Below, in pieces: positions 27,381 through 57,183 of a DNA stretch of 64,000 bases; the first letter of the stretch is position 1; each line of letters opens with the position of its first letter. The stretch comes from Escherichia coli. Its GTDB lineage: Bacteria; Pseudomonadota; Gammaproteobacteria; Enterobacterales; Enterobacteriaceae. The position numbers and the translations under genes were made by a program. Location of the stretch: assembly GCF_013122565.1 (NCBI RefSeq), contig NZ_CP053258.1, one strand, 5' to 3'. Below the pieces are notes generated by a model that was not told where the DNA came from, did not search any database, and worked only from the letters and a program-made list of their open reading frames with translations.

Positions 27381-27743
27381 TGGTGGAGCTGGCGGGAGTT
27401 GAACCCGCGTCCGAAATTCCTACATCCTCGGTACTACATGCTTAGTCAGTCTTTACATTCGCTTGCCAGCTGCGGACGGACACGCCACTAACAAACTAGC
27501 CTGATTAAGTTTTAACGCTTCAACCCCAGGCAGGGCTTCCACGCGATCTCTTTTGGGTTTGACCTCTCTTGATCCCCGTCCTAAGAGCGGAGGCTAGGGA
27601 GAGAGGGCTCTAAGCAGGTTATTAAGCTGCTAAAGCGTAGTTTTCGTCGTTTGCGACTATTTTTTGCGGCTTTTTACGAGGCCAACCGCCCCTCGGCATG
27701 CACCTTGGGTTTCGCAAATCCCGTCGAATCCAGAATCAGCCCC
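27381..27743 (-). ncRNA. ssrA: tmRNA (SsrA), 363 nt
   Basis: Reverse complement reads GGGGCTGATTCTGGATTCGACGGGATTTGCGAAACCCAAGGTGCATGCCGAGG … and contains the tag reading frame GCAAACGACGAAAACTACGCTTTAGCAGCTTAA (ANDENYALAA*) and the tRNA-like 3' end …GGGTTCAACTCCCGCCAGCTCCACCA. Confidence 0.96.
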
Positions 27744-45612: not shown

Positions 45613-45642
45613 ATAAAAAAGGCCCCCCGATTTGGGAGGCCT
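45613..45642 (-). terminator. pheA attenuator terminator
   Basis: Minus strand reads ggcctcccaaatcggggggccttttttatt: GC-rich hairpin plus U-run between pheL and pheA. Confidence 0.8.
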
Positions 45643-45689
45643 TATTGTTCGTCTTCGCATTCTGTTTCACACGACGAAACGCCTCCCAT

Positions 45690-45737
45690 TCAGGGGAAGG
45701 TAAAAAAGAATGCGAAGAAAAACGGTGTGTGTTTCAT
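45690..45737 (-). CDS. pheL: pheA leader peptide PheL (15 aa, Phe-rich)
   Basis: Minus-strand atgaaacacacaccgtttttcttcgcattcttttttaccttcccctga gives MKHTPFFFAFFFTFP*; 7 of 15 codons are Phe. Confidence 0.85.
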   Translation of the reverse strand: MKHTPFFFAFFFTFP

Positions 45738-45840
45738 GTTTGTTTCCTTAAGTGACTTTAGTACAGTACCCGTACTGTTTTCACGCTGTCAACAAAAAAC
45801 GCGCCCGAAGGCGCGTTGGCGATACACTCAATATAAAGGA

Positions 45841-49033: not shown

Positions 49034-49095
49034 CCTAAAGAATCAAGACGATCCGGTACGCGTGATTTTCTTTTCACATTAATCTGGTCAATAAC

Positions 49096-49124
49096 CTTGA
49101 ATAATTGAGGGATGACCTCATTTA
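49096..49124 (+). promoter_or_regulatory. Sigma-32 heat-shock promoter of clpB
   Basis: cttgaa (49096-49101) -N14- cctcattta (49116-49124); matches sigma-32 consensus CTTGAA…CCCCATNT. Confidence 0.7.
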
Positions 49125-49162
49125 ATCTCCAGTAGCAACTTTGATCCGTTATGGGAGGAGTT

Positions 49163-51736
49163 ATGCGTCTGGATCGTCTTACTAATAAATTCCAGCTTGC
49201 TCTTGCCGATGCCCAATCACTTGCACTCGGGCACGACAACCAATTCATCGAACCACTTCATTTAATGAGCGCCCTGCTGAATCAGGAAGGGGGTTCGGTT
49301 AGTCCTTTGTTAACATCCGCTGGCATTAATGCTGGCCAGTTGCGCACAGATATCAATCAGGCATTAAATCGTTTACCGCAGGTTGAAGGTACTGGTGGTG
49401 ATGTCCAGCCATCACAAGATCTGGTGCGCGTTCTTAATCTTTGCGACAAGCTGGCGCAAAAACGTGGTGATAACTTTATCTCGTCAGAACTGTTCGTTCT
49501 GGCGGCACTTGAGTCTCGCGGCACGCTGGCCGACATCCTGAAAGCAGCAGGGGCGACCACCGCCAACATTACTCAAGCGATTGAACAAATGCGTGGAGGT
49601 GAAAGCGTGAACGATCAAGGTGCTGAAGACCAACGTCAGGCTTTGAAAAAATATACCATCGACCTTACCGAACGAGCCGAACAAGGCAAACTCGATCCGG
49701 TGATTGGTCGTGATGAAGAAATTCGCCGTACCATTCAGGTGCTGCAACGTCGTACTAAAAATAACCCGGTACTGATTGGTGAACCCGGCGTCGGTAAAAC
49801 TGCCATCGTTGAAGGTCTGGCGCAGCGTATTATCAACGGCGAAGTGCCGGAAGGGTTGAAAGGCCGCCGGGTACTGGCGCTGGATATGGGCGCGCTGGTG
49901 GCTGGGGCGAAATATCGCGGTGAGTTTGAAGAACGTTTAAAAGGCGTGCTTAACGATCTTGCCAAACAGGAAGGCAACGTCATCCTGTTTATCGACGAAT
50001 TACATACCATGGTCGGCGCGGGTAAAGCCGATGGCGCAATGGACGCCGGAAACATGCTGAAACCGGCGCTGGCGCGTGGTGAATTGCACTGCGTAGGTGC
50101 CACGACGCTTGACGAATATCGCCAGTACATCGAAAAAGATGCTGCGCTGGAACGTCGTTTCCAGAAAGTGTTTGTTGCCGAGCCTTCTGTTGAAGATACC
50201 ATTGCGATTCTGCGTGGCCTGAAAGAACGTTACGAATTGCACCACCATGTGCAAATTACTGACCCGGCAATTGTTGCAGCGGCGACGTTGTCTCATCGCT
50301 ACATTGCTGACCGTCAGCTGCCGGATAAAGCCATCGACCTGATCGATGAAGCAGCATCCAGCATTCGTATGCAGATTGACTCAAAACCAGAAGAACTCGA
50401 CCGACTCGATCGTCGTATCATCCAGCTCAAACTGGAACAACAGGCGTTAATGAAAGAGTCTGATGAAGCCAGTAAAAAACGCCTGGATATGCTCAACGAA
50501 GAACTGAGCGACAAAGAACGTCAGTACTCCGAGTTAGAAGAAGAGTGGAAAGCAGAGAAGGCATCGCTTTCTGGTACGCAGACCATTAAAGCGGAACTGG
50601 AACAGGCGAAAATCGCTATTGAACAGGCTCGCCGTGTGGGTGACCTGGCGCGGATGTCTGAACTGCAATACGGCAAAATCCCGGAACTGGAAAAGCAACT
50701 GGAAGCCGCAACGCAGCTCGAAGGCAAAACTATGCGTCTGTTGCGTAATAAAGTGACCGACGCCGAAATTGCTGAAGTGCTGGCGCGTTGGACGGGGATT
50801 CCGGTTTCTCGCATGATGGAAAGCGAGCGCGAAAAACTGCTGCGTATGGAGCAAGAACTGCACCATCGCGTAATTGGTCAGAACGAAGCGGTTGATGCGG
50901 TATCTAACGCTATTCGTCGTAGCCGTGCGGGGCTGGCGGATCCAAATCGCCCGATTGGTTCATTCCTGTTCCTCGGCCCAACTGGTGTGGGGAAAACAGA
51001 GCTTTGTAAGGCGCTGGCGAACTTTATGTTTGATAGCGACGAGGCGATGGTCCGTATCGATATGTCCGAGTTTATGGAGAAACACTCGGTGTCTCGTCTG
51101 GTTGGTGCGCCTCCGGGATATGTCGGTTATGAAGAAGGTGGCTACCTGACCGAAGCTGTGCGTCGTCGTCCGTATTCCGTCATCCTGCTGGATGAAGTGG
51201 AAAAAGCGCATCCGGATGTCTTCAATATTCTGTTGCAGGTACTGGATGATGGGCGTCTGACTGACGGGCAGGGGAGAACGGTCGACTTCCGTAATACGGT
51301 TGTCATTATGACCTCTAACCTCGGTTCCGATCTGATTCAGGAACGCTTCGGTGAACTGGATTATGCGCACATGAAAGAGCTGGTGCTCGGTGTGGTTAGC
51401 CATAACTTCCGTCCGGAATTCATTAACCGTATCGATGAAGTGGTGGTCTTCCATCCGCTGGGTGAACAGCACATTGCGTCGATTGCGCAGATTCAATTGA
51501 AACGTCTGTATAAACGTCTGGAAGAACGTGGTTATGAAATCCACATTTCTGACGAGGCGCTGAAACTGCTGAGCGAGAACGGTTACGATCCGGTCTATGG
51601 TGCACGTCCTCTGAAACGTGCAATTCAGCAGCAGATCGAAAACCCGCTGGCACAGCAAATACTGTCTGGTGAATTGGTTCCGGGTAAAGTGATTCGCCTG
51701 GAAGTTAATGAAGACCGGATTGTCGCCGTCCAGTAA
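49163..51736 (+). CDS. clpB: Disaggregase chaperone ClpB (AAA+)
   Basis: Start at [34 protein letters not shown]… (857 aa); two Walker A motifs ([16 protein letters not shown]). Confidence 0.96.
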
Positions 51737-51851: not shown

Positions 51852-51998
51852 TTGTCAGGCCGGAATAACTCCCTATAATGCGCCACCACTGACACGGAAC
51901 AACGGCAAACACGCCGCCGGGTCAGCGGGGTTCTCCTGAGAATTCCGGCAGAGAAAGCAAAAATAAATGCTTGACTCTGTAGCGGGAAAGCGTATTAT
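51852..51998 (+). promoter_or_regulatory. rRNA operon tandem promoters P1 and P2
   Basis: P1: ttgtca (51852-51857) -N26- tataat (51884-51889) with GC-rich discriminator gcgccacc; P2: ttgact (51971-51976) -N16- tattat (51993-51998). AT-rich UP/Fis region upstream (51780-51850). Confidence 0.8.
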
Positions 51999-52179
51999 GC
52001 ACACCCCGCGCCGCTGAGAAAAAGCGAAGCGGCACTGCTCTTTAACAATTTATCAGACAATCTGTGTGGGCACTCGAAGATACGGATTCTTAACGTCGCA
52101 AGACGAAAAATGAATACCAAGTCTCAAGAGTGAACACGTAATTCATTACGAAGTTTAATTCTTTGAGCATCAAACTTTT

Positions 52180-53721
<1,542 letters not shown>

Positions 53722-53806
53722 CCTTAAAGAAGCGTTCTTTGAAGTGCTCACACAGATTGTCTGATAGAAAGTGAAAAGCAAGGCGTCTTGCGAAGCAGAC
53801 TGATAC

Positions 53807-53882
53807 GTCCCCTTCGTCTAGAGGCCCAGGACACCGCCCTTTCACGGCGGTAACAGGGGTTCGAATCCCCTAGGGGACGCCA
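53807..53882 (+). tRNA. gltW: tRNA-Glu (anticodon UUC) in 16S-23S spacer
   Basis: GTCCCCTTCGTCTAGAGGCCCAGGACACCGCCCTTTCACGGCGGTAACAGGGGTTCGAATCCCCTAGGGGACGCCA; anticodon loop CT-TTC-AC. Confidence 0.95.
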
Positions 53883-54066
53883 CTTGCTGGTTTGTGAGTG
53901 AAAGTCACCTGCCTTAATATCTCAAAACTCATCTTCGGGTGATGTTTGAGATATTTGCTCTTTAAAAATCTGGATCAAGCTGAAAATTGAAACACTGAAC
54001 AACGAATGTTGTTCGTGAGTCTCTCAAATTTTCGCAACTCTGAAGTGAAACATCTTCGGGTTGTGA

Positions 54067-56970
<2,904 letters not shown>

Positions 56971-57063
56971 ACAACGCCGAAGCTGTTTTGGCGGATTGAG
57001 AGAAGATTTTCAGCCTGATACAGATTAAATCAGAACGCAGAAGCGGTCTGATAAAACAGAATT

Positions 57064-57183
57064 TGCCTGGCGGCCTTAGCGCGGTGGTCCCACCTGACCC
57101 CATGCCGAACTCAGAAGTGAAACGCCGTAGCGCCGATGGTAGTGTGGGGTCTCCCCATGCGAGAGTAGGGAACTGCCAGGCAT
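57064..57183 (+). rRNA. rrfG: 5S ribosomal RNA (120 nt)
   Basis: TGCCTGGCGGCCTTAGCGCGGTGGTCCCACCTGACCCCATGCCGAACTCAGAAGTGAAACGCCGTAGCGCCGATGGTAGTGTGGGGTCTCCCCATGCGAGAGTAGGGAACTGCCAGGCAT. Confidence 0.96.

Follow-up and report, generated by a model that had tools for sequence, protein, structure and literature searches.

Is the clpB gene of this Escherichia coli strain read from a single translation start, or does a second start lie inside the coding sequence? The question is raised by a GTG codon that is preceded, within clpB, by a Shine–Dalgarno (SD) sequence of its own. Dual translational initiation of E. coli clpB, with an internal GUG at Val149, was reportedly described by Squires et al. 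in 1991 and Park et al. in 1993. The whole stretch of DNA that was analyzed, 64 kb (64,000 nucleotides) in length, is referred to below as the window, and all coordinates are positions within it.

The clpB gene, its internal GTG and the preceding Shine–Dalgarno sequence

The only long open reading frame over the site was found on the + strand, with a stop codon ending at 51736. The gene was identified as the clpB orthologue: 5425 of 5426 complete E. coli genomes matched the 2.7-kb stretch at 95–99.7% identity, and the matched gene was always annotated as clpB, ATP-dependent chaperone ClpB. Pfam analysis of the encoded protein gave two copies of Clp_N followed by AAA, AAA_lid_9, AAA_2 and ClpB_D2-small, which is the ClpB architecture. 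The elements on which the argument depends are the following.

49163..51736, + strand: clpB coding sequence (CDS) for full-length ClpB (ClpB95), 857 amino acids plus stop; the ATG at 49163 is equivalent to the annotated K-12 start
49607..51736, + strand: nested in-frame CDS for the short isoform ClpB80, 709 amino acids plus stop (residues 149–857), placed by alignment of the K-12 ClpB80 CDS
49154..49165, + strand: primary SD and start, with GGAGG at 49154–49158, a 4-nt gap and ATG at 49163–49165
49589..49591, + strand: in-frame ATG of Met143, a decoy six codons 5' of the GTG, with no SD core preceding it
49595..49602, + strand: internal SD GGAGGTGA, within codons Gly145 (GGA), Gly146 (GGT) and Glu147 (GAa)
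49607..49609, + strand: internal GTG initiation codon (in-frame codon 149), read as Val149 in ClpB95 and as fMet in ClpB80
53708..53721, + strand: 3' tail of the window's 16S rRNA (GGATCACCTCCTTA; 16S at 52180–53721), the anti-SD partner in trans

The mechanical open reading frame call begins at ATG 49151 (MGGV-MRLD...), four codons 5' of the accepted clpB ATG at 49163. These four codons (49151–49162, + strand) contain the primary SD (GGGAGGAG), and use of ATG 49151 as a start is therefore very unlikely.

Counting from ATG 49163, codon 149 begins at 49163 + 148 × 3 = 49607, so that the GTG at 49607–49609 is in frame with clpB, as the first-pass annotation of the site had claimed. Positions 49589–49612 read atg cgt GGA GGT GAa agc GTG aac. 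The SD-like GGAGG core described in that annotation is indeed present, at 49595–49599; the start assigned to it, 49593, takes in two extra bases (GT). Its distance from the GTG had been given as 9–10 nt, a value that applies only to the middle of the SD; the gap between GGAGG and the GTG is 7 nt (49600–49606), and the first G lies 12 nt upstream.

The octamer GGAGGTGA was found to be perfectly complementary, over all 8 nt, to the 3' tail of the 16S rRNA encoded in the window, the reverse complement of 53711–53718 being equal to 49595–49602. Within the 64 kb, the + strand contains the octamer at this site only, and the single copy on the - strand lies opposite the 16S 3' end itself (53711–53718). 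For an anti-SD scan, a 10-nt frame was slid along 49100–51736, and the duplex energy with the 16S tail GGATCACCTCCTTA was calculated at each position. The strongest predicted anti-SD duplex over this range of the clpB mRNA was located at 49593–49602 (-13.6 kcal/mol), whereas the primary SD (49150–49159) gave -10.2 kcal/mol. Internal in-frame ATG, GTG or TTG codons are present at 52 positions in clpB, and a full GGAGG core lies upstream of codon 149 only. Gly145 is encoded by GGA, a codon used for only 3 of the 63 glycines of the window clpB; the SD thus depends on an uncommon synonymous codon.

A chance test was carried out in which synonymous codons were permuted within clpB, with the protein and the codon usage kept. 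In 26% of the permutations, GGAGG fell 4–10 nt before an in-frame ATG, GTG or TTG at some point in the gene; for an in-frame start at codon 149 itself the figure was only 1.8%. Because 26% of permutations carry one somewhere in clpB, an SD-plus-start motif is by itself weak evidence; its exact position at codon 149 is what counts.

The same position marks a domain boundary in the protein. Both Clp_N repeats were assigned by Pfam to the N-terminal part, and the AAA, lid, AAA_2 and D2-small domains are all C-terminal to residue 149. A solved structure entitled "ClpB protein" (1KHY) consists of a 148-residue chain matching residues 1–148 of the query, and the isolated N-terminal domain that was crystallized is thus exactly the piece missing from ClpB80. 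As judged from the sequence, ClpB80 is ClpB without its N-terminal domain and with the rest of the protein kept; the literature likewise describes the short form as being without the substrate-interacting N-domain.

Identity with the K-12 site and published initiation data

The window ClpB protein is 100% identical to that of K-12, with 0 amino-acid differences, and the 18 nucleotide differences between the window clpB and that of K-12 MG1655 are all synonymous. No difference falls between nt 255 and 522 of the CDS. The 226 nt 5' of clpB are identical in the two genomes, and the 121 nt centred on the internal site are likewise 100% identical. In the K-12 RefSeq record, two CDS features are listed for b2592, namely "chaperone protein ClpB" (2574 nt) and "ClpB80" (YP_010051194.1, 2130 nt). 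They have a common stop codon, and ClpB80 is 444 nt (148 codons) shorter at its 5' end, which places its start at codon 149. On alignment, the first base of K-12 ClpB80 falls on window position 49607; the reference genome thus already carries the annotated feature at precisely that base, and the correspondence with K-12 codon 149 drawn in the first-pass annotation is correct. Compared with the dual initiation site of E. coli K-12 clpB (ClpB95/ClpB80, internal GUG Val149), the gene, codon, SD and spacing are the same and nothing differs at the site, the 18 synonymous substitutions lying elsewhere in the window clpB.

Across the E. coli population, 5377 of 5425 complete genomes matched the 61-mer 49577–49637 with an identity of at least 99% in the aligned portion. 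Routine PGAP annotation of the other strains names full-length clpB alone under this match.

Initiation at the site has been followed by Ribo-RET (retapamulin profiling) in E. coli, where well-defined peaks were reported at the previously verified internal starts of infB, clpB and mrcB (Meydan et al., bioRxiv 10.1101/520783). The clpB peak was present in both K and B strains (BW25113 and BL21), and Park et al. 1993 is cited for the clpB internal start in the same work (bioRxiv 10.1101/520783). A retapamulin initiation peak at this position, named as a check when the site was first noticed, is thus in print, and the statement that E. coli ClpB is known in two forms, the shorter starting at an internal GUG (Val149), agrees with both the K-12 RefSeq ClpB80 CDS and the literature. 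As in clpB, one mRNA with two in-frame starts and an internal SD is found in infB (IF2 alpha/beta) and mrcB (PBP1b alpha/gamma); the proteins are unrelated to ClpB, however, and the internal start of clpB, lying in a linker, eliminates an entire folded domain.

The clpB proteoform pair of Salmonella Typhimurium has its GTG at CDS nt 445–447, which is codon 149, as here. Salmonella with tagged chromosomal clpB gave two bands, the lower being ~ninefold weaker, and conversion of GTG-445 to CTT (codon 149, Val to Leu) left the long form alone (Fijalkowski et al., mBio 2024, PMC11005335). This is a different species, and the ~ninefold weaker, condition-dependent short form is Salmonella's figure.

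We put the probability that the site is the characterized internal translation initiation site of E. coli clpB at about 95%. Observed directly in this analysis were the sequence, the reading frame, the identity to the annotated K-12 site, the SD complementarity and the domain boundary; initiation at codon 149 and the role of the short form are taken from the literature. For the strain from which the window comes, we infer initiation at GTG 49607 from a site sequence that is the same as that of K-12. The view that the dual-isoform arrangement is preserved here appears to be well founded, with the site identical to that of K-12 and both SD and GTG in place. The feature is already known and annotated in K-12 and is ordinary.

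According to this reading, a single heat-shock-induced clpB mRNA would be read from two starts. Ribosomes starting at ATG 49163 would produce full-length ClpB (857 amino acids, "ClpB95"). Binding of 30S subunits to the strong internal SD GGAGGUGA (49595–49602) would lead to initiation at GUG 49607 in the same frame and to ClpB80 (residues 149–857), in which the N-terminal substrate-binding domain (residues 1–148) would be absent and the linker, both AAA+ modules and the middle domain would be kept. The two isoforms may then co-assemble as mixed hexamers that, according to the literature, reactivate aggregated proteins better than either alone; increased aggregate reactivation by hetero-oligomers of ClpB95 and ClpB80 is credited to Nagy et al. 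2010 in a paper that cites it. As the mixed long/short hexamers are reported to be the more active disaggregase, survival after heat stress would be tuned in this way. The site is a textbook internal start, and its value is that of a positive control: a genuine nested start was pinpointed, down to the codon, by reading raw sequence alone.

Codon-level comparison of the site across species

In one scan of one-genome-per-species contigs, 80 proteobacterial clpB loci with 60–98% protein identity were collected and aligned at the codon level; the Enterobacterales were represented among the 80 species by two members only, Citrobacter and Photorhabdus. R144-G145-G146 and V149 were found to be widely conserved as amino acids; the nucleotides on which initiation depends were conserved far less, and not beyond what the peptide motif itself requires. 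Val149 was present in 69 sequences (the window and 68 species), encoded by GTG in 30 of them and by GTC, GTT or GTA in 39. Since the species are phylogenetically related, the P values of the comparison are rough: GTG at codon 149 was not enriched over the valine usage of the respective genes (30 observed versus 34.9 expected, P = 0.92), GGA at Gly145 was ~2-fold enriched across species (11 observed versus 5.6 expected, P = 0.017), and the anti-SD duplex was slightly stronger where a start-type codon was present at 149 (Mann–Whitney P = 0.03).

A start codon at 149 combined with an SD of -8 kcal/mol or better was seen in 12 of the 81 sequences including the window, i.e. in 11 of the 80 other species, and two more of the 81 have ATG at position 150. 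In Photorhabdus caribbeanensis (L003), codons 145–149 read GGT GGT GAA AAA GTT, which offers neither an SD core nor a start codon. Many of the loci L005–L075 also keep the RGGxxV peptide with start codon and SD core absent.

In the literature on the two-isoform ClpB of Mycobacterium tuberculosis and other bacteria, the GTG is called "highly conserved", a description resting on protein alignments, whereas here 39 of the 68 species with Val149 are without GTG. Judged by these codons, "highly conserved" overstates the case, and conservation of Val149 as an amino acid should not be taken for conservation of a start site. The comparison counsels caution only and does not demonstrate loss of the site, given the kinship of the species and the possibility of weaker or SD-independent initiation, to which it does not extend.

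These data also bear on whether the SD-like sequence and the GTG could be by-products of conserved G-rich linker codons (Arg-Gly-Gly-x-x-Val), with no meaningful initiation. In keeping with such an origin, most of the 80 species retain RGG and Val149 at the protein level, GTG shows no enrichment at codon 149, and an SD followed by an in-frame start arises by chance somewhere in the gene with a probability of 0.26. The sequence is nonetheless identical to that of K-12, where the start is annotated and gives a Ribo-RET peak, and mutation of the GTG removes the short isoform in Salmonella; the GGA codon of Gly145, moreover, is rare in the gene and enriched across species. A by-product origin is accordingly considered highly improbable.

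Origin of the short product, mRNA structure and genomic surroundings

Two other sources of a short form would not require internal initiation on the full-length mRNA: a transcript that begins inside the gene, and proteolytic cleavage within the linker. The literature reports internal transcription start sites 5' of the putative internal start for Leptospira clpB in E. coli, and the flexible linker in which the site lies is a plausible protease target. A promoter search between 49163 and 49607 with a tool whose scope is sigma-70, not sigma-32 or sigma-E, found no sigma-70-like promoter between the two starts, and thus gave no support to an internal transcript. The change of GTG to CTT (Val to Leu) that abolishes the short form in Salmonella argues against both routes; Val-to-Leu replacement is no obvious block to linker cleavage, whereas loss of a start codon would be expected to act in just this way. 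Ribo-RET, furthermore, captures initiating ribosomes at the site. Neither an internal transcript nor clipping has, in our view, any appreciable likelihood as the source of the short form. Initiation at the in-frame ATG of Met143 instead of the GTG is barely credible, for although ATG is the better start codon and a TIS-calling tool assigned the start to Met143 in the Salmonella Ribo-RET data (PMC11005335), no SD core lies at a usable distance 5' of 49589 (the GGAGG being downstream of that ATG), the K-12 short form is annotated from codon 149, and in Salmonella Typhimurium, where, as in the window, an in-frame Met143 ATG lies unused just 5' of the GTG, both isoforms remain when Met143 is mutated but not when the GTG is (PMC11005335).

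With internal initiation at codon 149 as the preferred reading, mRNA folding around the site was considered. An unusually open mRNA was not found at the internal start: the unpaired probability of 49593–49622 corresponded to the 71st percentile for clpB, and in predicted accessibility codon 149 came 15th among the 52 in-frame start-type codons. When 121 nt were folded in isolation, the internal SD was predicted to be largely sequestered (pairing P about 0.85) by an ACCACC segment lying upstream within the open reading frame; this local fold was no more stable than shuffled sequence (z = -0.85).

An RNA thermometer at the site was also considered and was rejected, as SD pairing was unchanged from 30 to 46 °C in silico and the fold had the z value given above.

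ClpB isoform ratios are condition-dependent in Salmonella (PMC11005335). The predicted fold raises the idea that the isoform ratio might be set by mRNA structure masking the internal SD GGAGGUGA, which receives no support from the folding results and which we regard as unlikely. Elongating ribosomes arriving from the primary start, or stress, would then unmask the SD, and translation of ClpB80 would be coupled to that of ClpB95.

At the primary start, the mRNA was predicted to be strongly structured (10th percentile of accessibility). An Rfam match to the Ysr155/RyfD sRNA (49044–49182, + strand, 125 bits) spans the leader of clpB together with its primary SD and reaches 20 nt into the CDS, and ryfD is annotated at the same place in K-12. 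By eye, a sequence 5' of clpB at 49095–49124 (+ strand), consisting of CCTTGAA, a 14-nt spacer and CCTCATTTA, was noted, which we take to be a putative sigma-32-type heat-shock promoter. A small hairpin from the terminator scan (49106–49120) lies inside this candidate promoter.

Directly 3' of clpB, the window contains a complete rRNA operon (51852–57181, + strand), made up as follows.

51852–51879 and 51971–51998, + strand: sigma-70-like promoters of the operon, from the promoter scan
52180–53721, + strand: 16S rRNA
53807–53879, + strand: tRNA
53960–54059, + strand: StyR-44 match
54067–56970, + strand: 23S rRNA
57066–57181, + strand: 5S rRNA

This layout matches that of K-12 rrnG, where rrsG comes after clpB. 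Rfam matches elsewhere in the window were to tmRNA (ssrA, 27381–27743, - strand), the phenylalanine leader (pheL, 45613–45738, - strand) and a further tRNA (19538–19610, + strand), all of which are usual in this region of the E. coli chromosome.
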